IMG/VR virus record: IMGVR_UViG_3300009031_000221
Coordinates: 96,001 to 160,000 of that record
From: a virus
Taxonomy: Duplodnaviria > Caudoviricetes
Length of the DNA: 64,000 nucleotides
Strand: one strand, 5' to 3'
A program made the translations under genes and the position numbers. Positions 29,762 through 62,034 of the stretch are shown here, piece after piece (within the stretch, counting starts at the first letter, position 1; each line of letters opens with the position of its first letter). Below the pieces are notes generated by a model. That model was not told the DNA's origin and did no database searches. It saw only the letters and a program-made list of their open reading frames with translations.

Positions 29762-30163
29762 TCAGATCCCCTTTGGAGGGTTTTTCGCCATGTACCGAGT
29801 AGCTACTCGTTGTGTCATAGACGAATGCTTCACCTGTGAAGTGCCAAATGCAGACTCGACTGCCTCATCAACCAATGTTTTCTCGGATAGAGGAAGGCGT
29901 GCCTCCAGGAACTCGACACCCATCTTGGACAGTGCCAAACCTGTTCGATCTAATGCAATTTCTAAAGCATCCATTCGCCGTGGAAGTGCTTCTACTACAT
30001 CCCCCGCAATCTGATAGATGTGTTCCTTGTGCTCTGAAGCCTCGACCAGCTTCATAACCCGTGCAACCAAATGCTGAATACGGTGTGTTTCAAGCCGGGC
30101 TCGGGTCACCCCTTCAGTTAGGAGTGCCCAAGCCGCTTGACTACTTGCATTCTTGGATTGCAT
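29762..30163 (-). CDS. Helical hypothetical protein with a C-terminal RVATRY motif
   Basis: GAGGAG RBS; operon-packed. Confidence 0.65.
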   Translation of the reverse strand: MQSKNASSQAAWALLTEGVTRARLETHRIQHLVARVMKLVEASEHKEHIYQIAGDVVEALPRRMDALEIALDRTGLALSKMGVEFLEARLPLSEKTLVDEAVESAFGTSQVKHSSMTQRVATRYMAKNPPKGI

Positions 30164-30244
30164 CAACAACTCCTCTAGGGGAAGCCGAAATAGCGACTAT
30201 CCTATTGGAGAACCGTCAATCAAAGAACTATCGGAAAGACGGGA

Positions 30245-35585: not shown

Positions 35586-35622
35586 TATGATGTGGGCACA
35601 AACGATGCTCTAGGGACATATC

Positions 35623-35775
35623 ATGCGTATTGGTTCAAAGGCACAAGGGCAAGATCAAGCAGCCAAAGAGGCGAGCCATACACATACCTTCTCCCGGGCT
35701 ACTGCCCGCCGGTGCGAACGGGCAATCGAATCCCGTGTTCGCCAAGCCGGTCAACGACAGTGCCGCGAGGGGTAG
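35623..35775 (+). CDS. Small basic protein (50 aa), missed by the track
   Basis: MRIGSKAQGQDQAAKEASHTHTFSRATARRCERAIESRVRQAGQRQCREG; follows the promoter and ends 11 nt before the next start. Confidence 0.55.
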   Translation: MRIGSKAQGQDQAAKEASHTHTFSRATARRCERAIESRVRQAGQRQCREG

Positions 35776-35786
35776 AAAGGAACATC

Positions 35787-40103: not shown

Positions 40104-40118
40104 TATAAGGAAGCTAAC
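40104..40118 (-). promoter_or_regulatory. Putative late promoter GTTAG-cttc-CTTATA
   Basis: Recurring motif; upstream of 40054. Confidence 0.55.
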
Positions 40119-41061: not shown

Positions 41062-41110
41062 AGGAATCAGTGTATTCGATAATTCCCCGAAATGCAAGCA
41101 TCCAAAACGC

Positions 41111-41186: not shown

Positions 41187-42062
41187 TTAGCGAGTGATCG
41201 TCAGACGTGCCAAACCACGAGGGTTGAACGCGCCAATACCCAAATTTTCGAATACTGAGAAGCCAATGGTACGTGCCTTGGGATCGTCAGCCGAAAGAAC
41301 CGTCAACTCAGTACGTACCGGAATACGTCCAAAGTGCTCAGGCTCGCAGCAAACGTACACCGTGCCAACAGGAACCAAACGGCTCGTGATGACAGATGCG
41401 CCCCACAGGGTGGCCATCAAGCCCGTCTTCAGCAAGGTTGCCTGAGACTCGATATCCAAGATATCGCGTCCAAACTTCCTCAAGTCCGCATAATCGCGGG
41501 CGTTCATGTAAATACGTGCTACACGCAAGTCATGACGCTCGATCAATGCGAATGCATCAGCGAGAACCGCACCCGAGATGGGGGCGACTACCGGGATGTC
41601 CGGGTTCAACTGCGCCGAGAGGGAGTCGAAGCCCGCCGTGGCGATAGAGTCCAGGATTGCGAACACACGCTCGTCTTCAGCTGCCTGAATCTGAGCACGG
41701 GCCAAGTCCTGGGCACGTTCGATCAAGTCGAACCTACGTTCCTTGATTTGCGTCAAAGGAATTTCGGGATTCGATGCGATCTCGAACAACGGAAAAATGA
41801 CACGCCTTGGCTTCGTGATAGCCAAGATGTTCTGACCTTCTTCACCGACCACGTACGCCGTAACGTCCGGGTCTTTATCGTAAATCGGGAGAGCGCCGTC
41901 AGGAAGCTGCTCTACCAAAAAGGTTTTCCGCCCAACAGCGGCATAATCGCGACGGGTACGCAGGGGCTGCGTCATGCTGGCTGCCAGCTTGACACGACCT
42001 GCAGGCGTCTTGATGTATTCGCCGATGATCTTCTGCTTGATTGCGTTGTTTACAGTACTCAT
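41187..42062 (-). CDS. Major capsid protein (HK97-fold)
   Basis: Last gene of the protease-scaffold-decoration-MCP block, with a strong terminator; IPLFEI...AQIQAAEDERVF...RIYMNARDYADLRK...LWGASVITS pattern. Confidence 0.88.
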   Translation of the reverse strand: MSTVNNAIKQKIIGEYIKTPAGRVKLAASMTQPLRTRRDYAAVGRKTFLVEQLPDGALPIYDKDPDVTAYVVGEEGQNILAITKPRRVIFPLFEIASNPEIPLTQIKERRFDLIERAQDLARAQIQAAEDERVFAILDSIATAGFDSLSAQLNPDIPVVAPISGAVLADAFALIERHDLRVARIYMNARDYADLRKFGRDILDIESQATLLKTGLMATLWGASVITSRLVPVGTVYVCCEPEHFGRIPVRTELTVLSADDPKARTIGFSVFENLGIGAFNPRGLARLTITR

Positions 42063-43021: not shown

Positions 43022-44776
43022 TTAGCCGTTGAAAACCTTGGAGACATCAGGTGCCGATTCCCACAAACGGGAGAGTTCGTCAACTTCACCGCCAGCCGAA
43101 GCCGTACGGGTCAATCCACCCACAGTGCGAACGCCGGTCGAAGCCTTGCGGGGCTGCGGACGCTGCGATGCAAGGCGCATGGCCTTCTTTGCAGCAGGGG
43201 AAGCATCCTCGTCTTCGCCTTCATCCTCATCCTCAGACTTCTTGGCCTTCTTGGATGCAACAGGAGCTTCCTCCTCTTCATCCTCATCCTCAGCCTCATC
43301 TTCCTCGGCGCCATCATCCTCATCCTCGTCCTCAGACTTCTTGGCCTTCTTGGATGCAACAGGAGCTTCCTCCTCTTCATCCTCATCCTCAGCCTTAGCG
43401 GACTTGCCGCCGAAGATCGATGCCAACAGCGCTTCGTCATCGTCGCCGAGAACGTCATCGCTACCGTCCGCGAGGCCCATCGGGTCTCCCGTCATGCCGA
43501 ACATACCGGCATCATCACCGCAAGCCTTCTTGCCTGCAGTAGGAGCATCCTCCTCATCTTCTTCATCCTCGGCCTCTGCCTTCTTCGCCTTCTTTCCGCC
43601 CTTCTTAGCTGCAACGGGAGCTTCCTCCTCATCTTCTTCAGCCTCAGCCTTCTTGGACGCAACAGGAGCTTCCTCTTCAGGTTCCGCCTTCTTGGCCTTG
43701 AGTGCCTTGAGCTTGGCAGCCTTCATGAAGGTAGCTTCCATCTCGGAAAGCATTGCAGCCTCAGCGGGATCAAGTCCAGCTACGGTTGTAACAGCCGCTA
43801 CGACAGGCTCAGGGGACAACGCATCAATAACTTCTTCCGAAGCCAGGATACCATCACGGTCAGTATCCAGGGCAGCGAACAGATCCTGCGATCCAACCCA
43901 CTCCGCCTGCATTACAAATCCGTCATTGTCCGTATCCATCGAAGCGAAGAACTTGCGTGCAGCCTTGCGAGCGGCAGCTTCCTTCTTTTCCTCGGGCTTG
44001 TCTTCGGGCTTGACTTCGGGTTCATCCTCGCCTTCGGCCTTCTTGGCTTCCTTGCGGGCTGCATCCTCATCCTTGGCCTTGGGGGCCAACGTCGGACCCT
44101 TGGGGTCATTCTGGTCAGCCTTCTTGAGGCTTTGTACCTTCTCGGTCAAAGCCGAAAGGGCACCCAGAACCTCGTCCATTTCAGACTTCTTTCCAGCATC
44201 AGGGGCTTCCTCAGCCAACATCATGTCCAGATCGTCATCATCCATATCGCCAAAGTCATTGGCAGGACCACCGAAATCATCAAAGTCGGGTTCGCCAAAA
44301 TCAGCCTGAGGAGCCATTTCCTCAGCCAAGAATCCTCCACCGATACGCTCCAATGTTGCATTGATGCGGGAATCCGACCAATCCATCATATCGAGCGCTT
44401 GATTTTCAACTGTATCGGATGAAGCCTTCTTGCCAAGCATGGCGCGAGCAATGCGAATGCACTTCTGTGCCTTGCGCTCCACGGCTGCACGCAAACTACG
44501 TGCTTCCTTGGGGACGCGGGGCTGCTCCTTGTGGGCAGGGTGATCCTGATCTTCCGTATCGTAGCCAGGAATGGCCGGGGGGTTACCCTGGGCATACGGG
44601 GGCTTCCGAACGTCCTCAGCCCATGCTGAAGGATCGCCTTTCTTGTAGGCCTCATAGGCAGGATCTGCCTGATGGGCGGGGTGGTCTTGATCCTCAGTAC
44701 CGTAACCGGGGATCTGGGGGGCGGCAGACGCCGAACGTCCTGCCGCCCACGTCATGCGATTCCTATTGGTGCTCAT
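43022..44776 (-). CDS. Capsid scaffolding protein (acidic, low-complexity, EF-hand pair)
   Basis: Between protease and decoration/MCP; very rich in E/D/K/A; TGATG coupling to the protease stop. Confidence 0.75.
   Translation of the reverse strand: MSTNRNRMTWAAGRSASAAPQIPGYGTEDQDHPAHQADPAYEAYKKGDPSAWAEDVRKPPYAQGNPPAIPGYDTEDQDHPAHKEQPRVPKEARSLRAAVERKAQKCIRIARAMLGKKASSDTVENQALDMMDWSDSRINATLERIGGGFLAEEMAPQADFGEPDFDDFGGPANDFGDMDDDDLDMMLAEEAPDAGKKSEMDEVLGALSALTEKVQSLKKADQNDPKGPTLAPKAKDEDAARKEAKKAEGEDEPEVKPEDKPEEKKEAAARKAARKFFASMDTDNDGFVMQAEWVGSQDLFAALDTDRDGILASEEVIDALSPEPVVAAVTTVAGLDPAEAAMLSEMEATFMKAAKLKALKAKKAEPEEEAPVASKKAEAEEDEEEAPVAAKKGGKKAKKAEAEDEEDEEDAPTAGKKACGDDAGMFGMTGDPMGLADGSDDVLGDDDEALLASIFGGKSAKAEDEDEEEEAPVASKKAKKSEDEDEDDGAEEDEAEDEDEEEEAPVASKKAKKSEDEDEGEDEDASPAAKKAMRLASQRPQPRKASTGVRTVGGLTRTASAGGEVDELSRLWESAPDVSKVFNG
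43231..43394. repeat. Perfect 65-bp direct repeat (43231-43295, 43330-43394) in the scaffold gene
   Basis: Encodes a duplicated AEDEDEEEEAPVASKKAKKSE unit. Confidence 0.85.
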
Positions 44777-46299
44777 CACTTTTCTCCTCGCTGTGGCGAC
44801 TGCCTGGTATTTCCAGCCTTTCCCGAAGTACATCCCCGTGAAAGAAGTTTGCCAAGACGAATTAACGTCTTAGCCTCATCCATGTTGGGTTCGCGTCCCA
44901 TTGCCAGGCGGCAGGCATGAATGAAGGAATTAGCAGAACCATACCTATTGGAACCACCGACCTGCAGTGCAGTGCGATAAATTCCAACGGGGACAGTAAT
45001 GCCGATTTGCTGATTGAACACCGCCACGCGGTTGATCAGGTCAGCGTCAGATGATGCAGTACGGACAATATCGTCCAATCCTGCCTGATATGCTTTGCGT
45101 GCCATTGAGGCTTGCTTATTGAGCGTCTCGTTGGTGCTGCTATTTCCAGGGGCTGGCGGGGCCAAATCCTTCTGGAGACGATCCTGCACTCGAGTAATAA
45201 GATGGTTGTAAACCGCGTCCTCTACATCCTTGAATGGAGTGGGCGGCGCTACAGGTGCTGCCGGGGCTACTGGAGCCGGGGCCTCAGGGGCTCCGTCCTC
45301 ATCTTCCCATCCAGCAAAGAAATCATCGGATGCATCCACATTGATTCTGCCCGTACGTGCCGGGGGTCCAACACGGGATACTATCACCGCATCAACAGGG
45401 GTAGATGCCGCCTTGAGGCGATCATCCTTCGTCCACTGAGGAGGAGGAGTTGACAAAACCTTCTTAGCCTTCTTCGCAGTCTCAGGGCTAAACTCTAGAA
45501 CGTTCCGAAGCACTGCCCCAGTAAATGCAGGCGTGCCAACCCAGGATGCTTCAATAAACTGTACGCCGCCTGTTGGTCCTAATGACTCATGGCCACACAG
45601 TTCCGCAATACGATGCTTGTTGCCATTCTCGTCAAAGAACGTGTTACCCTTGGCATATTTGATGTGAGGGCACATCTCCGTTTCATCAGCAGCCCAATGT
45701 CCACACTTGGTGCAAATAGTCCCGTCAACAGTGCAGCCCATTGATAGGGTGCCCATTTTTCCGGACTCAATAGCCTTGACCAAATCTTCATGCTTGCGAT
45801 CCGTGGCAATCAGGATATCCACATAGATGGAATCCCCAATGTCACGTGCCACGGCATCAATGATTCTGCCCTTGGACAATTCTTCTACTTGGACGTGTTC
45901 AACGAAATTATGCCCGCCAACGAATGTTTGGTAGGAAGACATCAATACAGGGCGATTCCAACAATCCATGTTGTTATTGATGAATTGATCACTCGCAGGC
46001 TTAACACGGAAATCGCTAAACTTCCGATTAACCCGGAACCCATCCTCCATTACGGAGCCCGTTTTGATTCCCTGGGGTGAATAGGTATCTACCGACGCAA
46101 TAATTGTGGCATGCGTTAGGAGATAATTATTCGGATTGAATGTCTCACCGAAAAATTCAGATGCCCGATCTACAAGGGATCCGCTTAGATCCCCTTCAAC
46201 CTTGGCGTCTTTGCTTCCAGCTGTCCGGATGTTACTCCATTCAGTTTGGGAAACGTGTGGGCGAACTACCTGAGCACAGGCGTACTTCATGAATGCCAT
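44776..46299 (-). CDS. Prohead maturation protease
   Basis: NFVEHVQ...KGRIIDAV...LSMGC.V...CTKCGH...FIEASWVGTPAF, typical of large-phage prohead proteases; lies upstream of the scaffold. Confidence 0.82.
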   Translation of the reverse strand: MAFMKYACAQVVRPHVSQTEWSNIRTAGSKDAKVEGDLSGSLVDRASEFFGETFNPNNYLLTHATIIASVDTYSPQGIKTGSVMEDGFRVNRKFSDFRVKPASDQFINNNMDCWNRPVLMSSYQTFVGGHNFVEHVQVEELSKGRIIDAVARDIGDSIYVDILIATDRKHEDLVKAIESGKMGTLSMGCTVDGTICTKCGHWAADETEMCPHIKYAKGNTFFDENGNKHRIAELCGHESLGPTGGVQFIEASWVGTPAFTGAVLRNVLEFSPETAKKAKKVLSTPPPQWTKDDRLKAASTPVDAVIVSRVGPPARTGRINVDASDDFFAGWEDEDGAPEAPAPVAPAAPVAPPTPFKDVEDAVYNHLITRVQDRLQKDLAPPAPGNSSTNETLNKQASMARKAYQAGLDDIVRTASSDADLINRVAVFNQQIGITVPVGIYRTALQVGGSNRYGSANSFIHACRLAMGREPNMDEAKTLIRLGKLLSRGCTSGKAGNTRQSPQRGEK

Positions 46300-47844: not shown

Positions 47845-47918
47845 TTGATTGCTCCTGCGATATTGGCTAGGCCGACACGTCTGGGCGCAACAAGGCCCCA
47901 CGCTCTCTATGCCTGCAT

Positions 47919-47970: not shown

Positions 47971-50900
47971 TCACCTCTGTTGTCTCATCCAGGTCATTCG
48001 TACTCGACCTTGATATTGTGAGGTTTTACCTGGAGAAGACCCTGAGGAATCTGCACCCCCCATTATCGCCCCCATACTCTCCATAAACTCATCTGGAGTC
48101 ATGTCCTTCATGCGCTCCCGAGTTTCTGGCTTTGCGTGCTCAAGAAAGTCCCTCATCAACTCGGCGGGGGATTTATCCTTGATTTTGTCTTTGTTGGCAG
48201 CGTGGAATTCCTCAATAGCGGATTTGTCTGCCGGGTGTACCTTCGGTATGGCAGGAGGCTCATCATCTTCAGGTGCTTCCTCAGGTTCTGCCTTCACGTA
48301 CTTCTTATCCAGTTCCCCAACATCCCCGGTTTCAATAACACGCCGCATCTGTACTACCGATGGGTCATCATCCGGTGGATCCCAACCTTCTGCTTTCATC
48401 GCTTCCATCTGGGCTTTCAGATATGCTACACGGGCTATTGGCCCCTTTGTATCCTTGCACGCCTGCATAGCGGCAACGTCACTTCCTGAATCCCTTAGGC
48501 ACTTCGTCATCTCATCGGCAGCCTTGATATATTCAGGGGAACTAGATGCCTTGTCATGAACACGGGCGTTCAATGCTTCCATCTCTTTGGGGCTAATCTT
48601 CTTGCGAGCCTTGGCACCGGATTCGGGCTTCGCTTCTTCACCCTTGTCCTCACCCTCTCCCCCTTCCGATATATCAAATCCGGCTTGTAGGGACGCATGA
48701 CTGGTAGTCATATTGTCAACAGCCATGTCGTTGAGGAAATTCTTGAGGACTTCCTTTGCTTCCTTGGACACGTCCCCACTATTGAGTGCCCGAAACATCG
48801 GATCTTCCTTGGCGAACCCGTGTACAACAGCGATGTCCTTATCCTTCATTGAATCAAGGGCTTTCCTAATGCGTTCTCGTGAATCTGGGCTATAAAAGTT
48901 GTCAGGACTGCCCAACAATAAATCGGCTGAACCCTTGTCTATCATAGCCTTGGCTAATGCTACGTACTGCCGGGAAGGGCTAGGCTGTAGGGGTTTCCCA
49001 TCAACCATAATGGGTTTATCCCCATTGGCAATTGCCGCTAGATTCAATCCACTTAGGACACTTTTCAATTCCGAATGTAGAGGGGAACCCGGTTTGGCCT
49101 TGGCTATCTCCGCTACAACATGCTGTGTTGCCGCATCCCGTTCCTTTGAATCTATATCACCACTCATGTATTGCTTGTATGCAGTGGTAGCACGGGCATT
49201 CAACTGATCTGGACTCTTCGGTTCATTATTCGCATCCTGTCCCCCAATGTTCACGGGACCAGAACGAACTACGGGAGGCTTCTTATCTTTGGGGGCCTTT
49301 TCCGCCGGCGTTGCTGGAGGCGTAGCCGCAGGAGGCGTTGGCGCCGCTGGCGCTGCCGCAGGAGGCGTTGGCGCTGCCGCAGGAGGCGTTGGCGCCGCTG
49401 GCGCTGCTGCAGGCGGGGCGGGAACCTCAGGGGCGGGAGTTGCCGCCGGTGCTTCTGTAGATCCTGGCGCCTTCGCAAGATCCCGGATGCCGGAAAGGGA
49501 ATCGTTGCGAAGTTTTTCAGCCGCATCCATCATAGTTTGTGATTCAGCCTTCGCCTTGTCACTCTTAGAGTTTTCCATTGCCTTAGATGCGAGCCGCAAA
49601 TCCGTAGTAGATTTGTTGAAATCCTTTACGGCTTTATCCAATGCGGGCTTATGCTTAGCGAGTTCGGGATCGGACTCATACATAGCATCAAGATCCTTCA
49701 TGATGCCCCGTATATTCTTGCTATTCCCTTCCTCTAAAGCCTTTGCCAAATTGTCAATATGCTCCCCATGCTTCTTAGCAGGATCCTCTGTGGGTGCCTT
49801 CGCACCGCCCTCGCCTTTGTCCTCGCCGGTACCCTCAGCAGTCTCACCCTTGGCATAAGCCTCTGCCTGTTCCTTTTCCTCAAATGTCTCCCGGTCACCA
49901 TCGGGGTTCTTAGCAGCCCAACCTTTATCGGTTTGCCACACTTCCCCAGGTTTATGTTCAGGTTCATCAGTCTTGGGCGTATCAGGGCCTTCTGGACCCT
50001 TTGGACCTTCTGGCCCCTTTGGACCTGTGGGTCCAGGAGGTGCTGGGGGCACTGCAGACCCTTTACTCAACACCCACTGATATGCTACACGCTTGTAATT
50101 CAAAGATAGATCAGGATCATCCTCAGCCCCACCATCAGCTACGGATGGTTTATCCGGGTCTACTCGGTGATTCCGAAGATCCTGACGTGGGGGCTTCGAC
50201 TTTGGGGCGGGACGGATATTGGCATTCGCCGCATCATCCTCCCTCTCCGCATGCGTCTTGGTAGCTACACGTGCCATCCCCGTTGCAGGATCCAGTGATT
50301 CTAAGCACTGATCACATACACCCGTCACAGACAATCGATCCGAATGCAACCACTTAGGGCATCGGCACTGAATCACATTCCCACAGTAATGACATTCCAA
50401 TCGGAAATGGCCAATACCCGACGCATGAATAGCCTTCAGCGTATGCCCTTTACGAATGAATTGAGCCAACAAGGCCCTGTTAATATCAAATGCGGCTTTG
50501 GAGAAACCCTTCTTTTCAAAGGACTCCGATACATTTCCATCCTTGAGGTATTCATCCTCAAGCCCCGGCACAAGATATTGGCTTCGCAACGTGGCAGATT
50601 CGTGTCCTACAGCTTCAGCCGTTTCATCCAATGCCGTCTTAAACTCACCCTTGAGTTTCTTTTCACGTTCCTTCTTATCGGTTGGGAGCTTTCCCCCCTT
50701 GGAACGGACGGCCTTGAGGCGTTCCTGCATTTCCGTATTAGCGTGAAACCCTCGAATGTCCTTGGCGGATATATCGAAAGGCTTCAGGTAAACGTTCACA
50801 TCCTCCGCAGTGATACGGCAATCCTCACCCTCACATAGTGGGGAGTCCTCGCCCTTACCCTTCGTGGCATCCTTCAAGGCTTTGACTAATACTGCGTCTT

Positions 50901-53367
50901 TCACTTCCTTAACATGATCCACACCCGACTTGCCAACATACTTAACGGTTGCCTTGCCCCCAGAAAACGTAACATGCTTCTTACGCCAACCGGTAACCCC
51001 GAAATGCCCTTCCTTGGCGGATTCATCATTGCCAACACGCTCGAAGGTTTCATCCATCAACCCGACAGCCAATGCCGTGTACCGAATCTTTTCATCATCA
51101 GACTTCAGGTCTTTGCGATACTGCGCCCGTAGTTTATCGATATGCCCTCGGAGCTTTTCAATTTGCCCCGCCTTGTCCTTGTTACGATCCGCAATCTGAC
51201 GGTCACTATACTCATAGACGATCATATCTTCGCCGTCTTTGGTCTTGACCTTCTTCTTGTCCTGGTATTTGGCAGCTACTCGACGTGCAGCCATCAATCG
51301 AATGTATTCCGGAGTGTGCCCCACCAAACCTTCCTTACCATCAGCTAATAGCTCAATATCCCCCGCAATTGGGGGCTTTGGGGGTGCCTTGTCTTCCCGA
51401 ATCTTGAATAGGTTGACAACTTGTTTCTTTCCGGTAGGAGTTTCGATTAGAACTGTTGGGTCGCCCTTCTCGCTAACCCCGAAGTCCCTGATTAGCCCAT
51501 GCTTATTCTTGTATTTTCCGAACAGAACAGGATCCCCTTCGTTGACATTGAATACTTTTGCGATATGCACAGGCTGTTCCATGTATCGATTCGCAACTCG
51601 AACTTCTATGGACAATGCAGTCTTCCCCCTACGAGCCATCTCCACATGAATTCGGTTTTCCCACCTTGAAGCGGAAGTAGCCAGTACGGGGTCATCAAGC
51701 AATACCGTCCGTGCGGTATCCATTAATGTACGAATCTCCGCACCCTTGAGTTCGTATTTACGAATCTGTCCGGGCATATCGATAACTTTGCCCGGTTGCT
51801 CCAGGACATCTACAAATGCCTCGCCCTCTTCAGCACCCATCTGAACCGTGATTTCCCGAACGCGATCCTTCTGGGCGGGTGTCAAGAACCCCAAGCGCCT
51901 GCCCACGGGCATACCCAAATCCATCAAGTCAAACAGGAATGCCAAATCCCCCTTTCGTTCCGCCCAGTTTGCCAATGCCTCACGGAAGGGTTTATCCGAC
52001 TGTGCAATGGACTTGACAACATCCAGCAATCCTAGTTTGTCCATTTCCAACAATGCACGTTTGCCAACCCCTGTTTCATAGAACAAGGTGATGATCATAT
52101 TAGACAAATGCCCGCCAGGAATATTGCGGAGCTTGTCCTTGTTCTTCTTGATGGATGCTTCAACCTCGGGATCGATCTTGAATCCATATTTCAACAGGAA
52201 CTTGATAGCCCGAATCATCCGGCTGGGGTCATCCGAGAATGTCTGGTCGGGGCTAGAAGGGCAACGCATTACCCCTTCCTGAAGATCCTTCAGGCCACAA
52301 CCCGTCAAGTCCAGGATTTCCGCTTTATCCGGCCCATCCGCCAAGTCATGCATTCTCCACAATAGAGTGTTGAATGTGAATTCACGACGAAATGTGTCAT
52401 CCTTGATATTGGCTGGGGCGACTGCATCAGGCTTATAGCCTCCCGCATAGGATTCAGTACGGGCATTTGCAATCTCAATGACCTCACCCGATAGATTCTG
52501 TCCCCCGACTTCCCAATCACCTTTGATGGTGAGGATTGCCACCCCATAGTTATTGGTTGTCAAGTTCGTGTCAGTTGGGATTGCCCGCTGCAACTGCTTG
52601 GCAAACCATTCCGAATCCTTACCCTTTAGTGCTACCGAATCAATGACGACATCGATGTCCTTGATAGGTTCCTTGATGATGAAATTACGTACAGCCCCAC
52701 CAACAACGTAGACATGCTTGGATACGCCCAGCTTTGTAGCCACGTTGGACAGGAACTTCATTAGTTCTACAGATACCTGATGTTGCATGGCGTCTACAAT
52801 ACGGGAGGCCATTCGGGTAGGATTCCCAAATTCCACTACATGAACCTTGGGCAAACCCCATATCTCGATGCCATCGAACGTCCAATCCCCCTGCGGAAGG
52901 ATCCCATCAAATTCGGTTTCCAGGCCGTCTAGGTATGCCAAGGTGACGTGCGGGGAGTAGACCAGGGGAAAGTAGTCATCTACATCAAATCCGGCGCCCA
53001 TGAGGGCATCCCGGAGTTTCCACCGCAATGCAGCCAAGTCATGGCTGTACCGAACTCGCATAATCGCGACTCGCCGTTCCTTGTCGGGTTGTGCAAAATA
53101 GTCTGGCCCATATACATGGGCTTTCACACCACCCCGAATTTCAGCCAATACACGAGATGAAATATCCAGGAATTCGGATTCCCGTTCCTTGGATACGGTG
53201 CCTACATACAGGAATGTTGTATGTGGGACGGATTGATCCTCGGACCCAAGATCAGGAAACTGATCCCCCAATTCTTTGGATAGAGGGATGAAGAACCCTA
53301 CACCTGTGCCGTCACCGGTTTTCTTACCGTCAGACGCACCCGCGTATTTATTCCAAGCTGTGATCAC
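47971..53367 (-). CDS. Multi-enzyme polyprotein: 2H phosphoesterase + class II tRNA nucleotidyltransferase/poly(A) polymerase + KOW/SH3 + DNA topoisomerase IB + Zn finger + low-complexity tail
   Basis: PHTT/PHVT (two HxT motifs); VVGGAVRN..KDIDVV..RREFTFN..DDPSRMIRAIKF; ERVGN..YVGKSG..KDIR..VGH..SQY (the five TopIB catalytic residues). Confidence 0.9.
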   Translation of the reverse strand: MITAWNKYAGASDGKKTGDGTGVGFFIPLSKELGDQFPDLGSEDQSVPHTTFLYVGTVSKERESEFLDISSRVLAEIRGGVKAHVYGPDYFAQPDKERRVAIMRVRYSHDLAALRWKLRDALMGAGFDVDDYFPLVYSPHVTLAYLDGLETEFDGILPQGDWTFDGIEIWGLPKVHVVEFGNPTRMASRIVDAMQHQVSVELMKFLSNVATKLGVSKHVYVVGGAVRNFIIKEPIKDIDVVIDSVALKGKDSEWFAKQLQRAIPTDTNLTTNNYGVAILTIKGDWEVGGQNLSGEVIEIANARTESYAGGYKPDAVAPANIKDDTFRREFTFNTLLWRMHDLADGPDKAEILDLTGCGLKDLQEGVMRCPSSPDQTFSDDPSRMIRAIKFLLKYGFKIDPEVEASIKKNKDKLRNIPGGHLSNMIITLFYETGVGKRALLEMDKLGLLDVVKSIAQSDKPFREALANWAERKGDLAFLFDLMDLGMPVGRRLGFLTPAQKDRVREITVQMGAEEGEAFVDVLEQPGKVIDMPGQIRKYELKGAEIRTLMDTARTVLLDDPVLATSASRWENRIHVEMARRGKTALSIEVRVANRYMEQPVHIAKVFNVNEGDPVLFGKYKNKHGLIRDFGVSEKGDPTVLIETPTGKKQVVNLFKIREDKAPPKPPIAGDIELLADGKEGLVGHTPEYIRLMAARRVAAKYQDKKKVKTKDGEDMIVYEYSDRQIADRNKDKAGQIEKLRGHIDKLRAQYRKDLKSDDEKIRYTALAVGLMDETFERVGNDESAKEGHFGVTGWRKKHVTFSGGKATVKYVGKSGVDHVKEVKDAVLVKALKDATKGKGEDSPLCEGEDCRITAEDVNVYLKPFDISAKDIRGFHANTEMQERLKAVRSKGGKLPTDKKEREKKLKGEFKTALDETAEAVGHESATLRSQYLVPGLEDEYLKDGNVSESFEKKGFSKAAFDINRALLAQFIRKGHTLKAIHASGIGHFRLECHYCGNVIQCRCPKWLHSDRLSVTGVCDQCLESLDPATGMARVATKTHAEREDDAANANIRPAPKSKPPRQDLRNHRVDPDKPSVADGGAEDDPDLSLNYKRVAYQWVLSKGSAVPPAPPGPTGPKGPEGPKGPEGPDTPKTDEPEHKPGEVWQTDKGWAAKNPDGDRETFEEKEQAEAYAKGETAEGTGEDKGEGGAKAPTEDPAKKHGEHIDNLAKALEEGNSKNIRGIMKDLDAMYESDPELAKHKPALDKAVKDFNKSTTDLRLASKAMENSKSDKAKAESQTMMDAAEKLRNDSLSGIRDLAKAPGSTEAPAATPAPEVPAPPAAAPAAPTPPAAAPTPPAAAPAAPTPPAATPPATPAEKAPKDKKPPVVRSGPVNIGGQDANNEPKSPDQLNARATTAYKQYMSGDIDSKERDAATQHVVAEIAKAKPGSPLHSELKSVLSGLNLAAIANGDKPIMVDGKPLQPSPSRQYVALAKAMIDKGSADLLLGSPDNFYSPDSRERIRKALDSMKDKDIAVVHGFAKEDPMFRALNSGDVSKEAKEVLKNFLNDMAVDNMTTSHASLQAGFDISEGGEGEDKGEEAKPESGAKARKKISPKEMEALNARVHDKASSSPEYIKAADEMTKCLRDSGSDVAAMQACKDTKGPIARVAYLKAQMEAMKAEGWDPPDDDPSVVQMRRVIETGDVGELDKKYVKAEPEEAPEDDEPPAIPKVHPADKSAIEEFHAANKDKIKDKSPAELMRDFLEHAKPETRERMKDMTPDEFMESMGAIMGGADSSGSSPGKTSQYQGRVRMTWMRQQR

Positions 53368-53411
53368 AGGAGACCTCCCTAGGGGAGTCCAATAGACTTA
53401 GAACCGAAGTT

Positions 53412-55106
53412 CTAGAACCGTTCCGTGCCCTCGGCAGGCGGCTTCTTGTACTTCAGGCCCAAGTTCCCCGCGACCTTCTCTGTGATCTCGGTCGATTCAA
53501 CCAGAGCTTCACCAACACGGCTGTATGCCGCACGGACAACTTCATTCATCGAGGAGTCACTCAATGTAAACAAGTCGTTCTTCAACCCTTCGGCTGCCGT
53601 CACAGGATCGATGTTCAGCAGATCCAAAATGACATCGATTGGAATCGAACCCTTCTGGTACAGGCTGAATAGTGCATCATAGGTGTCCGCCGTATCCCGA
53701 AGCGCCAACCGTGTAAACGTCAGCTTCGGAACAATGACCTCAAGGATCCCATCTTCATCTTCTTCAACGAACCCCATGCGAGCGCACATTGGTTTGAAGA
53801 AGTATTCCTCAACTAGATCCTGCAGCATTTCGCGAAGTAGCATAAATCTAGTGTTGATAACCTCGAGGTGAATACGATCGCCGGAGTATGATGATTCACC
53901 GGATAGCAAACTCTCCGTCACACCTAGACCGGCATACAACTGCCTATCCGTCAAGTCATAAACCCATGACCAGTCAGGCAACCGTTGATCCGCACCCATT
54001 TCCTCCCAGTTGACCTGGAAGTTGGTGATGATCGAGTAATCAGGGTCTTGCAATGCAAGGTCAACCTGTTCACGCAAAGCGTCCGTCTGCTCATCAGACA
54101 TGTCCTCAGCATAGATCAATCGATAGGGCGTCATGTGACGCGACGCAATGCTAGTCAAAGACTGGCGAACCTTGTCCCGGAATACCAATGTCCGGAGGCA
54201 TCGCTGAAGGATGGACTTGCCACGCGGCTCATAAGGGCTCCGCTTGCGAGCCATGAAGTGACAGAAACTGCCTGCTTCGGGATCAGTATTCAGTGGGACA
54301 TTCCGCCCTTCAGCTACAGCCTCCACAATTTCAATCGGCATCGAGTTGGCAATACGCTGTGCTTGAGCATCCCCTTGACGGGCGCGCTCAATAATAGCCT
54401 TGGTCTTGGAGTCGGGCACTAGCTCAATGAGCTTCTCGTCCGTGAATGGGAATGACTCAACACGCACTTGCTCAGGGGGCAAGCATCGAATAGCTGTCCA
54501 ACCCTTGTAATTCTGATTGAGCCACTTGATCTCGCGTTCATCTGCATCCTCGAAGGGTTCCCAACGCTCGAGGAATTTCCCGTCAGCTGTGATTTCCCGA
54601 ATGGCTTGTTCCCGTACTTCACGGGGCATATCAGGATTGGTGTCCTCGATGAACAGCGCAACCTCACCAATCAGGTTCCACTCGTGAGTGACTTCCATGA
54701 GGCGACGTAGGAGCCCTACCTTCTTTGCCCACTTGGTGCAGAATCGCATTGACTTCTCAGCCAATTCCCGATTCCGTGCATCAGGCATGCCAACCCGAAC
54801 CTTGGACAACGGAAGCTCTGTGTGCAAGTCAATCGCCTGCCCAACAAAGGGTTCGTAGTCATAGAAGAATCGGTAGTAGTTATGTTGTTCGTCAACAGAC
54901 TGCGGTAGCTCGAGGAAGTCCGTCGATAGTTCAGGTGAGTAGAAATTACCGCCTGAACCAGCCTGGACACCGCCTGCCATCGGGAATGCGACTTTTGCCC
55001 GCATCGCTGTGGTGATGACTTTGCCGGGTTTGCCGACTGAAACACCAGGGCGTTGAGGGACAACCGCTACTTTGACGGTTTCATCAGGATTATTCTTGCG
55101 AGCCAT
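53412..55106 (-). CDS. Portal protein
   Basis: Downstream of TerL; FVGQAIDLHTELP...PPEQV...RGKSILQRCL...GVTESLLSG pattern of large-phage portals. Confidence 0.85.
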   Translation of the reverse strand: MARKNNPDETVKVAVVPQRPGVSVGKPGKVITTAMRAKVAFPMAGGVQAGSGGNFYSPELSTDFLELPQSVDEQHNYYRFFYDYEPFVGQAIDLHTELPLSKVRVGMPDARNRELAEKSMRFCTKWAKKVGLLRRLMEVTHEWNLIGEVALFIEDTNPDMPREVREQAIREITADGKFLERWEPFEDADEREIKWLNQNYKGWTAIRCLPPEQVRVESFPFTDEKLIELVPDSKTKAIIERARQGDAQAQRIANSMPIEIVEAVAEGRNVPLNTDPEAGSFCHFMARKRSPYEPRGKSILQRCLRTLVFRDKVRQSLTSIASRHMTPYRLIYAEDMSDEQTDALREQVDLALQDPDYSIITNFQVNWEEMGADQRLPDWSWVYDLTDRQLYAGLGVTESLLSGESSYSGDRIHLEVINTRFMLLREMLQDLVEEYFFKPMCARMGFVEEDEDGILEVIVPKLTFTRLALRDTADTYDALFSLYQKGSIPIDVILDLLNIDPVTAAEGLKNDLFTLSDSSMNEVVRAAYSRVGEALVESTEITEKVAGNLGLKYKKPPAEGTERF

Positions 55107-55524
55107 AAATGCCTCTTGCTGCAATCAGCTTCTTCTTAGCTTCATCGGCAGTTCGTTTTGCTTCCCGCGATGCACGGAATGCTTTCAATCGATCGGAGTC
55201 CGAATATTCGGAACCCACACGTTCATTCAAAGGAACCACAGGTCTAATAGATGCAATCCTACCTAGGCATTGATCAATGATCCCCTGCGTATCCTTAGCA
55301 CGGCGCAATCCCGATGATTCCGATCCATTACGGCGCCCTTCCGAAGCCATTTTCGAACATATATCCGCAGCGTGGCGAAGGGACTTTTCGGCATCCCGCA
55401 AATGCTTTCGCATTTCGATTTCTGCCAACCGAATCTGGTTCTCGTGTTGTTCCTGCTGCCTAGTCTGTTGATCAGCTTTCGCTTTATCTTGTGCTTCTTG
55501 ACGTGATGTCACTTTGCACCCCAT
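55090..55524 (-). CDS. Hypothetical coiled-coil protein
   Basis: Operon-packed between TerL and portal. Confidence 0.6.
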   Translation of the reverse strand: MGCKVTSRQEAQDKAKADQQTRQQEQHENQIRLAEIEMRKHLRDAEKSLRHAADICSKMASEGRRNGSESSGLRRAKDTQGIIDQCLGRIASIRPVVPLNERVGSEYSDSDRLKAFRASREAKRTADEAKKKLIAARGIYGSQE

Positions 55525-58966: not shown

Positions 58967-61329
58967 TCCACCTCCATCCCACCAAACGTCAAGTCCCCAA
59001 GAATCTCGATGTGGTGTTCATCCGCAACCCGAACGTCTTCGATACCCTCATTACGAAGGTCGAATTCCTTAGGGTTGAACAAGGAAGCAGTGACTTCCGA
59101 TTCATCCGCATTAGCCAGTTCAATGGCACGTGCCTGATACTTCTTGATGTTCTTTACAGGAAGCTCCTCCCTAGTAGCGAGCTTCTTGTTGTACTGCGAA
59201 CACACACCATCCGCATTGGCGAATGTGCATCCCGCACAACGGGACATTGCCAGGACATGCTTGATACCATTGGCACGATGCTTCAATGCGCCTTCTTCGC
59301 ATCCCGTGGTCCCATTCTTGGAAGCGTATGCCGCAGCATCTACATACAAATGCCCCGACAACCCCTCATGCGTTGCCCGAAGATCCTTAATGTCCTCTCG
59401 TGCGGCCTTACGGATTGGTAGAGGGAACTTGACCTTGAGCATTTCGCTCAATTCCTGCCCCATAGAACCTTCAGCCATCTTCTGCCGCGCCCAACGGCGT
59501 AATGCACGGAATTCATGCTCCGTAATATTGGGAGTAACCTTGGACACCTGTTGGATTGCCGTATACTGAGTATCAGCATACTTCTTAGCCGGAACGGCCT
59601 CAGGCATCTTCTTCCGATTGTCAGGCAACTTATCCAGGCTATTTGCGGCCTTCTTTGCTGCCACCCGCTGCTCAATGGCATCATCACTATTGGCAGCTTC
59701 TTGCGCCGCCGCCCGTTGCTTGATAGATGCAATACTAGCCTTGGAGAACTCGGCCTGAGCCACAGGGCGATATGCAGTATAGGCATGACCCATGTACGAC
59801 TTGATATCCGGGACTTCAACCGAAGCCTGACGATGTTGTCGTGCCATCTGGACAGCCGCAGCAATCAAGCGCTCCAATTCTGCCACAGGACGATTCATAG
59901 ACTCAATCCGCCCACGTTCCTCGGCAGTCAAAAGCCCTGACTTCACAACCCGTCCCAGGTAAGCGCTGAACTTCCGCTTGATGTTCGCCTCAACCCCCGC
60001 CTGTAGCTCATCCAACGAACGCAATGCCGCCTTGCGGGCGTGCATCGCTGTATCGGGCAATGTCGTACCGTCTCCATCGTAAACGCGATATTCGCCCGTT
60101 GCCGTAACCAGGGCGGCACCTACTTCTAACAGTTCTTCTGCAGAAGCTCCGGAAGCATTCAGCTGAATAGCATCGGACTGTGTGATTTTCCCCGCCTGAA
60201 CCCACCGTGCAATCCGAACCAATGCAGCCTTTCGCTTGGTTTCCAAAGATTGCTCTTCCGCTGTCTTCGGCAAAGGCGCCTTGATTACGGGAGCCTTGAG
60301 CGCAGCTTGTGCCTCGGCGTGGGATGCAATGACAGGCTTAACGACTGGCTGGAATTGTTCTGGGACAGAAGCCTTGGTCGGGCCGACCCGGAATGCTCGA
60401 CGCAGAATGTCCTTAGCATTACCTACGGATGCAACCTTATATCCCGATGCGGTCAATCGTGGTGCGTAATATTCTAGAGCTTCCTTCCACGGAATCTCGG
60501 ATACCATCACCATTCCGAGTTTATCGGCTACAGCTTGATCCTCCGTAATAACGTAATGTGCATCATGTGCAGACTTATGGATCTTGTCCAACCACTTGCC
60601 ATTCTTGATACCCGGAAATGCATTGGCACGAATGAATACCTTGCCAATCAACCCATGCTCTTCCTTGATGATCCGCATAGCCGAAGCCGCACGGTAGGAT
60701 TCATGCCCTAATGTTTCCACCAATTCAGCATGGATGCTATTAATGCTTTCCCCGTAATGTGCTCGACGCAAGGCCCGAAGAACCGCGTGTTTTACTTCCT
60801 CCGCAGTCTTCCCACTTTTCGCAGGAGCCTTCAAGGAGGCTTCGTAATCCGCCCTTTCCTTGTCAGTATTAGGAACAATGGTCAAACCATTGGTAGGGCG
60901 ATTCCGACCCCAGGCTTTCTCCAATTGTGGGATAGAATTGAGCTTCTTCTTGTTGTTGGGGAGACGCTCGTGATCGGGCTCCTGAGTTGGATCCATCCAT
61001 TGAAGATCGATAATCGAGGAATCCCTATCCAAGCCGCCTTCTTCCGCTGATAGCATGGCGGTCATGTTAATGCCCAAGCCACTTTCGCTATCATCTGTCA
61101 AGTCCTGAAAACTGAGGTCTTGGCCCGCATCTACAACTAGACCATCCGGCAATCCGGACAACCCTCGAGTAGTAGGTAGACGACCTCCATCCTCAGGCCC
61201 TTGATTATCGGGTTCATCAAACTGAAACCCATCCAATCCAAAATTGTTGCCTGTCGTGAATGTAAACTCATCAGCAGGGAGTGCCGATTCGCCCAGAAAT
61301 TCAGTCCAGTCATTAGTTTTCTTCATCAT
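58963..61329 (-). CDS. Large head-associated protein with an internal duplication and a Cys cluster
   Basis: EHGLIGKVFIRANAF and HEGLSGHLYVDAAAY look like related modules; C-terminal RCAGC..GVC. Confidence 0.7.
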   Translation of the reverse strand: MMKKTNDWTEFLGESALPADEFTFTTGNNFGLDGFQFDEPDNQGPEDGGRLPTTRGLSGLPDGLVVDAGQDLSFQDLTDDSESGLGINMTAMLSAEEGGLDRDSSIIDLQWMDPTQEPDHERLPNNKKKLNSIPQLEKAWGRNRPTNGLTIVPNTDKERADYEASLKAPAKSGKTAEEVKHAVLRALRRAHYGESINSIHAELVETLGHESYRAASAMRIIKEEHGLIGKVFIRANAFPGIKNGKWLDKIHKSAHDAHYVITEDQAVADKLGMVMVSEIPWKEALEYYAPRLTASGYKVASVGNAKDILRRAFRVGPTKASVPEQFQPVVKPVIASHAEAQAALKAPVIKAPLPKTAEEQSLETKRKAALVRIARWVQAGKITQSDAIQLNASGASAEELLEVGAALVTATGEYRVYDGDGTTLPDTAMHARKAALRSLDELQAGVEANIKRKFSAYLGRVVKSGLLTAEERGRIESMNRPVAELERLIAAAVQMARQHRQASVEVPDIKSYMGHAYTAYRPVAQAEFSKASIASIKQRAAAQEAANSDDAIEQRVAAKKAANSLDKLPDNRKKMPEAVPAKKYADTQYTAIQQVSKVTPNITEHEFRALRRWARQKMAEGSMGQELSEMLKVKFPLPIRKAAREDIKDLRATHEGLSGHLYVDAAAYASKNGTTGCEEGALKHRANGIKHVLAMSRCAGCTFANADGVCSQYNKKLATREELPVKNIKKYQARAIELANADESEVTASLFNPKEFDLRNEGIEDVRVADEHHIEILGDLTFGGMEVE

Positions 61330-61985
61330 TATTGATCCCTCTCCTGGAGAAGATACCGACTGGCGACACGCAAAGCACCAAGATCGGAGGATCTCTTATG
61401 GCGAGCCTGCTTCCGACCTGCTCCGGACGGGCCTTGGGGTTCCTCATCGTCGGCATCCATTTCGGATTCTTCCTTCTCCGCATATCCTTCAGGGTCAGCC
61501 CGAATTTCATCCACATCCATCATGATATTCTTCACATCAAGACGTTCACGAGGGCTCTGTTCAGTTATCGAGGGATTCCAGTGGGGCGCTTTGATTTCAT
61601 CGTGAATAGTATCTGTAAATGCAGACAAAGCTTCTACAACATTCATCAACTGCCGACGCATTTCAGCGATCTTCTGAATATAGCCTTTCCCGCCCAGGCT
61701 TCCATCAGGGCTAACTTGCGAGGACTTGATACGGGCAAAATCATCATGTGCAGATAGAGCGTGCCCCATTGCCAATAATGCAGCACGAAGAATCTTGGCT
61801 AACGGCTTGAGATTCTTCGAATCATACTTGAAATCCTCGGAAATAAGCCGTTCTGAAGGGCCAGGAGATCCCCAACCCCACTCATTTTTATCGCCGCCAC
61901 GATCCTTAACGAATCGGACTTCGCCGGCGGTCTTCATCCGTCGCATGTGGCGTGCTGCAACTTGTTCTACTATCCGGTCACTCAT
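61329..61985 (-). CDS. Head-associated protein with QVAARH/KTA/RVASRY motifs
   Basis: GGAGGAG RBS; a late-type promoter variant (GGTTA-tctt-CCTATG) at 62018-62032. Confidence 0.7.
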   Translation of the reverse strand: MSDRIVEQVAARHMRRMKTAGEVRFVKDRGGDKNEWGWGSPGPSERLISEDFKYDSKNLKPLAKILRAALLAMGHALSAHDDFARIKSSQVSPDGSLGGKGYIQKIAEMRRQLMNVVEALSAFTDTIHDEIKAPHWNPSITEQSPRERLDVKNIMMDVDEIRADPEGYAEKEESEMDADDEEPQGPSGAGRKQARHKRSSDLGALRVASRYLLQERDQ

Positions 61986-62034
61986 AGCACTCCTCCACAC
62001 CTCTCAAGATGGGTAGGCATAGGAAGATAACCAA

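Follow-up and report, generated by a model that had tools for sequence, protein, structure and literature searches.

Why should a huge tailed phage place a predicted RNA cyclic phosphodiesterase, a tRNA nucleotidyltransferase and a topoisomerase, joined in one giant polypeptide, directly behind its portal gene? The question is raised by a single open reading frame (ORF) in the virus record IMGVR_UViG_3300009031_000221 (Caudoviricetes), which is 536,053 bp long, is judged complete and represents a huge phage of the lineage of Bacillus phage G. We analysed positions 96,001–160,000 of this record, a stretch of 64,000 nucleotides called the window below; coordinates are those of the window unless genome positions are stated. 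By analogy with the polyvalent proteins of other phages, we propose that the product of this ORF (the giant protein) is a polyvalent protein without a MuF domain, which would be packed into the capsid and enter the cell along with the genome as an enzyme kit equipped with a docking peptide, and we give this reading a probability of roughly one half. The features on which the discussion of the protein is based are the following:

47971..53367, minus strand: the whole ORF (P0001), 1798 aa, GTG start; the frame is open across the whole-genome sequence, with no internal stops
53374..53379, minus strand: Shine-Dalgarno sequence GGGAGG, with a 6-nt spacer to the GTG
52822..53310, minus strand: LigT-type 2H phosphoesterase, aa 20–182, motifs H49xT51 and H140xT142; a folded block in the AlphaFold2 (AF2) model
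51619..52791, minus strand: class II tRNA nucleotidyltransferase (NTase; CCA-adding/poly(A) polymerase family), head to tail, aa 193–583
51406..51504, minus strand: small three-stranded beta module, aa 622–654 ("GDPVLFGKYKN..."), predicted local distance difference test score (pLDDT) 57–67, conserved in about 45 of 120 homologues
50512..51267, minus strand: type IB topoisomerase (TopIB) of the poxvirus/bacterial type, aa 701–952, with the pentad R777, K813, R872, H922, Y931
50293..50406, minus strand: Cys-rich putative zinc ribbon, aa ~988–1025 (CHYC...CRC...CDQC), seen in the translation; AF2 confidence low
49273..50070, minus strand: low-complexity spacer, aa ~1100–1365, with collagen-like GPxGPx, K/E-rich and PAAAP repeats
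48058..49260, minus strand: conserved all-alpha C-terminal domain (module Z), aa ~1370–1770, AF2 pLDDT 82.5

Domains of the giant protein

The N-terminal domain is matched by the Pfam family 2_5_RNA_ligase2 (PF13563) over residues 46–151, with 24.9 bits against a gathering score of 27. Its segments H49-T-T51 and H140-V-T142 align with the 2H motifs of 5h7e, and the His and Thr residues are invariant among 28 homologues. When the profile of these homologues (A2) was compared with the PDB, four chains were matched, all of them LigT/ThpR-type 2H proteins (2fyh, 1vdx, 5h7e and 1iuh, E-values 5e-4 to 8e-3), and the nearest NCBIfam model is TIGR02258, RNA 2',3'-cyclic phosphodiesterase (E-value 2.5e-6, far below the equivalog cut-off). 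In these alignments the domain resembles the LigT/ThpR branch of the 2H superfamily, and we predict it to be a cyclic phosphodiesterase. An earlier interpretation made from the DNA letters alone, here called the sequence-only reading, had announced a 2H phosphoesterase with intact-looking catalytic motifs in this region, which holds good, and had named both T4 Acb1 and LigT-type enzymes as points of comparison. No Acb1 chain is found among the PDB matches of the domain or its profile at E-values up to 1–10, a result that is compatible with activity on cyclic oligonucleotides.

T4 Acb1 is a 2H enzyme, and it is conceivable that the domain described here is likewise a degrader of signals (the cyclic nucleotides of CBASS, Thoeris or type III CRISPR) and not a healer of RNA ends. 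A proposal in this direction was made by Iyer et al. 2017, who had never met the 2H domains of polyvalent proteins together with RNA ligases and for this reason suggested that they hit nucleotide signals or act as RNases (PMC5512222). Nevertheless, the only PDB matches of the family profile are to LigT/ThpR-type cyclic phosphodiesterases, the closest NCBIfam model describes an RNA 2',3'-cyclic phosphodiesterase, and the domain is fused to a tRNA nucleotidyltransferase, while relatives of the giant protein pair 2H domains with RNA ligase, HAD_SAK_1, PAP2 and cREC RNA-repair modules. Both the profile matches and the domain company thus disfavour an Acb1-like role, which we consider quite unlikely.

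The second domain is identified by the Pfam family PolyA_pol (residues 219–368, 57.4 bits) and by a match to phrog_2244. Motif A (GGAVRN, 223–228, followed by D237-I-D239) aligns with that of solved class II enzymes, and motifs B and D are represented by RREFTFN (327–333) and DDPSR (379–383). In an alignment of 19 sequences G223–R227, D237, D239, R327, R328, D380 and R383 are invariant and N228 is nearly so; the DDPxR variant also occurs in the CCA enzyme of T. maritima (3h37). The block 193–583 of the AF2 model aligns with the full-length CCA-adding enzymes 3h37/3h38 (Foldseek E-value 3e-9, ~460 aligned columns), which indicates that the neck, body and tail helical domains are present. The assignment to the class II family, including the recognition of RREFTFN and DDPSR as motif variants, was therefore correct in the sequence-only reading. 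Free-standing CCA enzymes of phages (gp522 of phage G, those of Lak phages and of mycobacteriophages) show 27–35% identity to this domain. Eight family members carry an intein exactly at motif B (residues 333–335).

The NTase of the giant ORF is the only PF01743 (CCA-type) copy in the genome. Among the 68 tRNA genes of the phage, a CCA end is encoded in only ~20 and lacking in ~48, and elsewhere in the genome there are two genes each for PF09414 RNA ligases and for RtcB. The tRNA genes are clustered outside the window, at genome positions 208,343–259,393 and 483,473–483,562, with one RtcB gene adjoining one of the clusters; among the ARAGORN calls are a tRNA that would read the UAA stop codon (anticodon tta) and another whose anticodon, tgaa, has four bases.

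The third enzyme, TopIB, is matched by Topoisom_I of Pfam over residues 727–926 with 90.6 bits. Alignment to the Deinococcus radiodurans enzyme (2f4q) places R777, K813, R872, H922 and Y931 on the catalytic pentad; four of these residues are invariant in 29 family members, and H922 is conserved in at least 90% of them. Foldseek retrieves variola TopIB (2h7f, E-value 4e-10, TM-score 0.60 on the target) and 3m4a/2f4q (E-values ~5e-9 to 5e-8). The fold, the pentad and the Pfam match all agree with what the sequence-only reading had said of this domain. The N-terminal DNA-binding beta-sheet domain of ~80 residues was not encountered, as only ~27 residues lie before the position that corresponds to residue 76 in the D. 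radiodurans protein; the reduced N-terminal element consists of a helix (686–698) and a hairpin (701–720). This TopIB is the only PF01028 copy in the genome. A tblastn search with it detected no counterpart in phiRSL1, Lu11 or PaBG, cultured phages for which a 2021 review names a TopIB, and in GenBank a phage TopIB related to it occurs in one genome alone, LR745208.1 (485 kb, uncultured).

The AF2 model of residues 1–1100, computed from a 19-row alignment (mean pLDDT 70), contains well-folded blocks at 20–182, 193–583, 622–654 and 701–952, between which lie stretches with pLDDT below 50 (183–192, 584–613 and 655–705); the region beyond 953 is mostly of low confidence. As modelled, the ORF is an intact "beads-on-a-string" multi-enzyme gene whose modules are set apart by flexible linkers. 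A zinc_ribbon_2 domain (PF13240) was found in one homologue of the giant protein. Matches of the spacer to tail-fibre and collar PHROGs were weak and due to its repeats only, and weak Pfam matches to DUF7440, STPPase_N and HEPN-like_int fell in low-complexity sequence; both sets were disregarded.

Module Z is nearly always C-terminal in the homologues, whatever lies upstream of it. A profile search of 1.84 billion representatives gave a family of 183 proteins, the shorter of which contain no Pfam domains. Foldseek comparison of its fold with the PDB and BFVD gave no match at E ≤ 0.001, and the best VIA-align score (Z 7.6) lies in the noise range for helical proteins. We regard module Z as a candidate replacement for MuF as the anchor of the protein.

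Gene neighbourhood and relatives

The giant ORF is part of a long structural block on the minus strand, in which the following genes surround it:

55771-57732: TerL, upstream of the portal gene
53412..55124, minus strand: portal protein, directly upstream of the giant ORF (phrog_16240, E-value 1e-28)
44776..46299, minus strand: prohead protease (phrog_18299 and phrog_2774)
41187..42062, minus strand: major capsid protein (MCP; phrog_2522, E-value 1e-48), 39% identical to the MCP of phage G

Two ORFs without any family (320 and 211 aa) separate the giant ORF from the protease gene, and between protease and MCP the scaffold position is taken by a very acidic, repetitive 603-aa protein that contains EF-hand motifs, followed by a 234-aa ORF. 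The acidic protein (p603, 43022-44833, minus strand) is built of EEAPVASKKAKKSEDEDE units, and its two adjacent EF-hand calcium-binding motifs are unusual in a phage scaffold. Further along the window (401-5713, minus strand) a 1770-aa protein has its tail-sheath domain confined to the C-terminus (aa 1388–1766) and appears as a greatly extended sheath protein. Homing endonucleases are encoded beside the MCP gene (40114-41097, minus strand) and at 19807-21162 (minus strand).

As the sequence-only reading had it, a single uninterrupted frame with a good Shine-Dalgarno sequence lies between the portal gene and the protease block. The "own late-type promoter" assigned to it did not survive scrutiny. 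The gap between the portal stop codon and the giant ORF is only 44 nt long, a spacing that resembles translational coupling, and it holds no sigma-70-like site, no sequence that recurs elsewhere in the window and none of the enriched upstream k-mers of the genome. A bipartite promoter-like element, GACTTACTTtc-N8-caGCGTAGATag, precedes ~45 genes genome-wide and is probably a phage-specific early or middle promoter; its copies in the window lie upstream of 17446-17724 (minus strand), 18123-18467 (minus strand) and 35592-36368 (plus strand). A test of promoter class for late expression of the genes that bear the peptide described in the next section failed, since the two enriched k-mers turned out to be the halves of this one element, and since nearly all copies are located outside the structural block, the element is uninformative about late genes.

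Relatives of the giant protein are numerous. Searching 5.8 billion proteins, we recovered 123 giant proteins with lengths of 1,000–3,100 aa, about half of which combine PolyA_pol and Topoisom_I, and the family now comprises more than 150 giant proteins or loci in the portal-protease slot of uncultured huge phages (contigs up to 619 kb). The closest full-length homologue is 55% identical over 87% of the query and is seen on 16 contigs, with the gene order TerL, portal, giant, two small ORFs, protease, MCP. Most of the 80 IMG/VR loci recovered with the TopIB-module profile keep the order portal, giant, two small ORFs, protease, acidic scaffold-like protein and MCP. The same fusion thus exists in other phages, dozens of which show the 2H-NTase-TopIB order. 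An origin of the fusion in faulty assembly or gene calling is excluded for practical purposes by the uninterrupted 5.4-kb frame with its good Shine-Dalgarno sequence, by the recurrence of the order on 16 independent contigs, and by these dozens of further cases.

What varies is the content of the slot. The RNA modules of the relatives include 2H domains of several families (PF13563, PF02834, PF08302 and PF10469), RNA ligase (PF09414), HAD_SAK_1 (PF10307) and the cREC cyclic-phosphate-processing domain (PF20274); PAP2 phosphatase, NUDIX, GNAT, GGACT/ChaC, PARP, ART-PolyVal, InPase, DUF5661 and inteins also occur, ART-PolyVal and InPase in relatives only and not in the protein described here. 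MCPs of related loci are 83–90% identical while the giant proteins differ in architecture. Insertions of more than 80 aa (84 in all) cluster at the linkers, namely at 185–191, 572–625, 660–700, 953–1021 and 1300–1350, with 35 cases of up to 1,559 aa at 660–700, and in several of the 80 loci two to four separate ORFs take the place of the single giant gene. Sequence comparison shows a family that swaps modules at its linkers, the gene being modular and rapidly reshuffled yet fixed in the portal-protease slot of one clade of huge phages.

The portals (~1,090–1,150 aa) and proteases (900–1,470 aa) of some relatives are enlarged, and we considered them as effector fusions. The Pfam analysis identified the additional segments as inteins (Hint and LAGLIDADG), and the argument for a capsid location that could have been drawn from them was therefore dropped. 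Among L012, L031, L032, L059, L063 and L066 portal and protease genes are interrupted by inteins, and TerL ORFs of increased length (~1,080–1,120 aa) also occur. In six other loci (L029, L050, L061, L070, L083 and L091) a TopIB of ~350 aa is encoded between TerL and portal.

A junction and terminal peptide

The modules are joined by a recurrent peptide, RVA-x-R-[YW], three copies of which lie at junctions of the giant protein; other ORFs of the window carry it at their ends:

51583..51600, minus strand: RVANRY, aa 590–595, in the disordered linker 584–613 (coil in AF2)
51265..51282, minus strand: RVAAKY, aa 696–701, overlapping the isolated helix 686–698 and running into the basic KKKVK hairpin of TopIB
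50074..50091, minus strand: RVAYQW, aa 1093–1098, inside a conserved "DxDLSLNYKRVA" block; predicted isolated helix 1088–1099
61329..62000, minus strand: p223, a head-module protein with the C-terminal tag RVASRYLLQERDQ and an N-terminal variant QVAARHM
27917..30169, minus strand: two adjacent ORFs (614 aa and 135 aa) with tags at their ends, RVASRYLEGRRF and RVATRYMAKNPPKGI

The sequence-only reading had pointed out linkers of the RVANRY/RRVAAKY type, and these are both real and statistically enriched. There are six RVA tripeptides in the giant protein (0.67 expected) and 352 in 121 family proteins (93 expected), with the extended consensus A-x-R-V-A-[AS]-[RK]-[YWF]-L. In a crude set of 619 ORFs representing the whole genome, the pattern RVA.[RKQ][YWF] occurs 16 times, compared with 0.67 in shuffled sequences (maximum 4 in 300 shuffles), an enrichment of ~24-fold; ten copies are located within 15 residues of a terminus (0.09 expected). 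At least ten unrelated small proteins of the genome bear the motif at the N- or C-terminus. In 1,094 unique ORFs of the 80 related loci it was counted 97 times, against 2 after shuffling. Its density in the ORFs of the giant genes is 6.4 per 10,000 residues, while it is absent from the portals (21.6 thousand residues), the proteases (25.8 thousand residues), the MCPs, and the p603 and p234 families of the same loci.

Where the giant gene is split, the pieces keep the motif, or variants of the form K[IL][AST]xRYL, at their own termini. In L013, for instance, it is found at the start or end of all four pieces, which are a 2H protein of 197 aa, an NTase of 615 aa, a protein of 755 aa and a TopIB protein of 1809 aa. 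Three homologues have a breakpoint exactly at 697/698, within the RVA. The orthologues of p223 in L038 and L080 are tagged as well. In our genome three adjacent ORFs at 506–508 kb (L009, L010 and L011) are motif carriers. The second of them (L010, genome 506,984-507,478) is a Dps/ferritin-like protein (phrog_3636, DUF5856) that ends in ...RVASRYMK, with the motif near the N-terminus of its neighbour L011 and in the middle of L009. The six loci with a TopIB between TerL and portal (L029, L050, L061, L070, L083 and L091) also possess, between p788 and TerL, a conserved family of ~130 aa starting with RVAARFLxADQPPGQR. A second C-terminal motif, HG[FY][DENS]L[LST]A, ends the 320-aa protein p320 (...KKAHGFDLLA; 46939-47901, minus strand) and is present at or near the ends of some giant-gene products and neighbours in L051, L054 and L082.

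What could such a peptide do? The sequence-only reading had the polyprotein cut by the prohead protease, and a motif placed at module boundaries in flexible linkers, coinciding with insertions and with natural gene splits, could be the recognition site of that or another phage protease, which would release the enzymes in free form; the gene of the prohead protease is three genes downstream. T4 offers a precedent, its capsid-targeting sequences being targeting signals and gp21 cleavage sites at once. In our protease PDB and NCBIfam searches gave no match, so that a cleavage specificity cannot be borrowed. If the motif were a plain cleavage site, though, it would be expected in the usual substrates, namely portals, proteases, MCPs and scaffold-position proteins, where its count is zero; it is kept at the extreme termini of free-standing proteins, where cutting separates nothing, and it precedes standalone TopIBs outside head modules. 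Linker cleavage at this motif is therefore possible but not favoured, and we rate it as unlikely. Given the terminal position on free-standing proteins and the absence from protease substrates, we think it most likely that the peptide serves as a common docking or targeting signal, recruiting the modules and other cargo to one candidate partner.

Module Z was tried as the receptor of the motif and found unsupported, as loci without module Z hold up to six motifs. A complex prediction for the MCP (9-row alignment) and the tag-bearing C-terminus of p223 gave a score of 0.00, which speaks neither for nor against binding. A bolder version of the docking idea can be offered only tentatively, and we think it rather unlikely to be right in its entirety: RVA-x-R-[YW] would be a portable cargo-loading peptide that brings the modules of the giant protein, the Dps/ferritin-like protein and about ten ORFans into the heads of the phage G lineage, so that the virion delivers a pre-made kit for DNA relaxation and tRNA repair; this would amount to encapsulin-like loading in a DNA-filled capsid, with the giant protein evolving by exchange of modules at the tag.

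Possible roles of the giant protein

The proposed sequence of events is as follows. The giant protein would be synthesised late, at the same time as the proteins of the head, would enter the prohead in the manner of a polyvalent protein but without MuF, and would reach the cell with the DNA; the RVA-x-R-[YW] peptide would recruit each module, and other cargo, to the common partner. In the cell TopIB may relax the incoming 536-kb genome, as is thought for the TopIB of poxvirus virions. The 2H domain could open the 2',3'-cyclic phosphate ends left by a metal-independent RNase, whereupon the NTase could rebuild the 3' CCA of the tRNA. Possible substrates are damaged host tRNAs together with the ~48 phage tRNAs lacking an encoded CCA, in both cases before phage gene expression. 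Judged from the domain assignments, the pairing of 2H and NTase is mechanistically coherent, and the phosphatases (HAD_SAK_1, PAP2) and ligases of the relatives would complete such pathways.

Four observations lead us to propose packaging: the conserved slot, the occurrence of polyvalent-type domains in the same slot, the combination of a conserved non-enzymatic terminus with a long spacer, and the placement of the sole CCA enzyme and sole TopIB of the genome in a late operon. The notion of an effector kit is strengthened by relatives with ART-PolyVal, InPase and a wide RNA-repair repertoire. The interpretation given in the sequence-only reading has thus kept its domain identities, its head-operon position, its analogy to polyvalent proteins and its remark that MuF is missing, and has lost its separate promoter.

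Several results weigh against packaging of an enzyme kit. Neither MuF nor any other known head-anchoring domain was found in the giant protein: Pfam searches at E-values up to 1, which bear out the earlier remark on MuF, returned no MuF, portal fusion, DarA, SNF2/methylase core or other polyvalent signature domain. The presence of the RVA motif does not track that of module Z. The copy that precedes TopIB (RVAARYKxKKxVK) is also found in free-standing TopIBs outside head modules, so that this instance belongs to the TopIB module and is not head-specific. The NCBIfam models of CCA-adding enzymes and of PcnB score the NTase alike (~81 bits, both far below their cut-offs), and the specificity of the NTase, like that of the 2H domain, is not readable from sequence. 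The cultured relatives of the head module, Tunturiibacter phage Tunturi_5 (MCP 49.5% identical) and Bacillus phage G (MCP 39%), have no comparable gene after the portal. In the nearest GenBank relative, LR745208.1 (L094, 392,426-417,205), the MCP is 87.6% identical and the slot holds a 528-aa TopIB protein only, which implies that the large kit is dispensable and quickly gained or lost. There is no RVA-type motif in 25 kb of LR745208.1, and neither in this genome nor in phage G or Tunturi_5 is there an enrichment of codons spelling exactly R-V-A-x-R-Y; either the motif system is restricted to a lineage, or these phages use variants such as K[IL][AST]xRY.

Part of this evidence would suit a late cytoplasmic multi-enzyme with housekeeping duties that never enters the virion, in which the NTase matures phage tRNAs, TopIB relieves the torsion of replication, recombination or packaging, and the operon merely sets the timing or brings TopIB near the packaging machinery. 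With the sole PF01743 and PF01028 copies of the genome in the giant protein and no encoded CCA in ~48 of the 68 tRNA genes, such duties compete directly with counter-defence; some related loci have a small, free-standing TopIB gene in a non-structural neighbourhood, which also tells against packaging, CCA enzymes stand alone in phage G, Lak phages and others, and the MuF anchor is lacking. Yet, unless it arrives with the virion, an enzyme of tRNA maturation would be expected early and not among head genes, and a sole CCA enzyme in a late structural operon makes most sense if it is indeed carried in, or if the host enzyme suffices. A housekeeping role would also have to account for a portal-protease slot kept over dozens of divergent loci, for same-slot relatives with ART-PolyVal and InPase, domains defined from predicted injected proteins, and for a conserved non-enzymatic C-terminal domain and a long low-complexity spacer, which are hard to explain in a soluble enzyme. 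We take this alternative seriously, though we consider it rather less likely than delivery by the virion.

The protein might, alternatively, be packaged to serve mainly in structure or DNA handling, with TopIB acting during packaging or ejection, the spacer perhaps having an inner-body role, and the RNA enzymes being secondary and unrelated to anti-defence. TopIB is the most constant module (~108 of 120 homologues), a constancy that is partly search bias because the query from which the homologues were collected itself contained TopIB, and it is the only module left in LR745208.1; the long collagen-like, PA-rich spacer and the all-alpha terminal domain would fit as well. This is difficult to reconcile with the existence of module Z proteins without a recognisable enzyme domain, with the diversity and recurrence of the RNA-repair modules, and with the inteins that eight homologues carry precisely in NTase motif B, as is expected of a functionally important site. 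We regard a mainly structural or DNA-handling role as distinctly improbable.

If the giant protein is packaged, as we propose, huge phages carry a topoisomerase and the means of tRNA 3'-end repair or maturation into the cell ahead of gene expression, and the polyvalent idea widens from effectors that modify signals and proteins to DNA topology and RNA repair, in parallel to the virion topoisomerase of poxviruses. The junction peptide provides a handle on the selection of cargo for phage heads and on modular gene evolution, in that insertions, splits and motif coincide, and, should it prove sufficient for loading, foreign proteins could be packed into phage capsids simply by attaching it. Should packaging not take place, there is still a late-operon fusion in which a 536-kb phage, with its 68 tRNA genes, keeps its sole CCA enzyme and sole TopIB.

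Comparison with known systems

Virions of poxviruses such as vaccinia and variola contain a TopIB. In structure no other match comes closer to the TopIB module (2h7f, E-value 4e-10), and the R-K-R-H-Y pentad is common to both; the phage enzyme differs in being one module of a 1798-aa protein, in having its N-terminal domain cut down to a basic hairpin after the RVAAKY helix, and in a sequence identity of only ~20%. Free-standing CCA enzymes of phages belong to the same NTase family but are soluble and encoded away from head genes, whereas here the enzyme is embedded in a giant protein of the head operon. In a 2021 survey of jumbo phages CCA enzymes and topoisomerase I of the tyrosine-recombinase fold are separate genes of some of these phages (PMC7824862), and a 2026 jumbo-phage review makes no mention of such giant proteins. 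We found no description of the TopIB/NTase/module Z family or of the junction peptide in open-access papers and bioRxiv. The "Swiss Army Knife" proteins of RNA repair (Burroughs and Aravind 2016) resemble the relatives of the giant protein, which carry HAD_SAK_1, RNA ligase and cREC modules.

The internal proteins and Alt of T4, with their capsid-targeting sequence, are comparable in that enzymes are delivered from the head (as would be the case here), a short peptide is shared between them, and the prohead protease gene lies in the module. In T4 the signal stands at the N-terminus only, and cleavage at LxE/IxE sites takes it off; the peptide described here, which is known from genes only, is basic-aromatic, stands at either terminus as well as internally, and is missing from the core head proteins. 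Encapsulins provide another likeness, combining an HK97-fold shell with a short terminal peptide common to unrelated cargo, and one of our tagged proteins (L010) is ferritin/Dps-like, a classic class of encapsulin cargo. The sequence motif is a different one, however, the shell would be the DNA-filled head of a tailed phage, and capsid binding is here a candidate only.

The nearest analogy is with the polyvalent proteins defined by Iyer, Burroughs, Anand, de Souza and Aravind in 2017, whose listed domains include 2H, InPase, ART and GNAT (PMC5512222). Effector domains fused to head proteins, 2H among them, are predicted in two papers to be packaged and injected (PMC5512222, PMC9503650). Both polyvalent proteins and the giant protein combine numerous effector domains of unrelated kinds in a single very long chain, have genes next to those for packaging or the head, shuffle their domains rapidly, and draw on a shared repertoire, represented by 2H here and by ART-PolyVal, InPase, GNAT and NUDIX in relatives that occupy this locus. 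Both are predicted to act as infection begins. The giant protein differs in that it lacks MuF, portal, DarA or any other known anchor and has a core of TopIB and class II NTase. In the text of PMC5512222 covered by a term search "topoisomerase" occurs in the reference list only, and the passages on NTases concern protein-modifying Pol-beta NTases, not the CCA type. The 2H versions of polyvalent proteins were, according to the same paper, never seen with RNA ligases (PMC5512222), whereas the 2H domains of the present family co-occur with RNA ligases and other RNA-repair modules. The family possesses, moreover, an all-alpha C-terminal domain peculiar to it and a junction peptide that recurs, and is confined to huge phages of the phage G lineage. 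We therefore place the giant protein among the polyvalent proteins as a novel form of them; its junction and terminal peptide, of which we know no earlier description, opens the packaging hypothesis to direct test.

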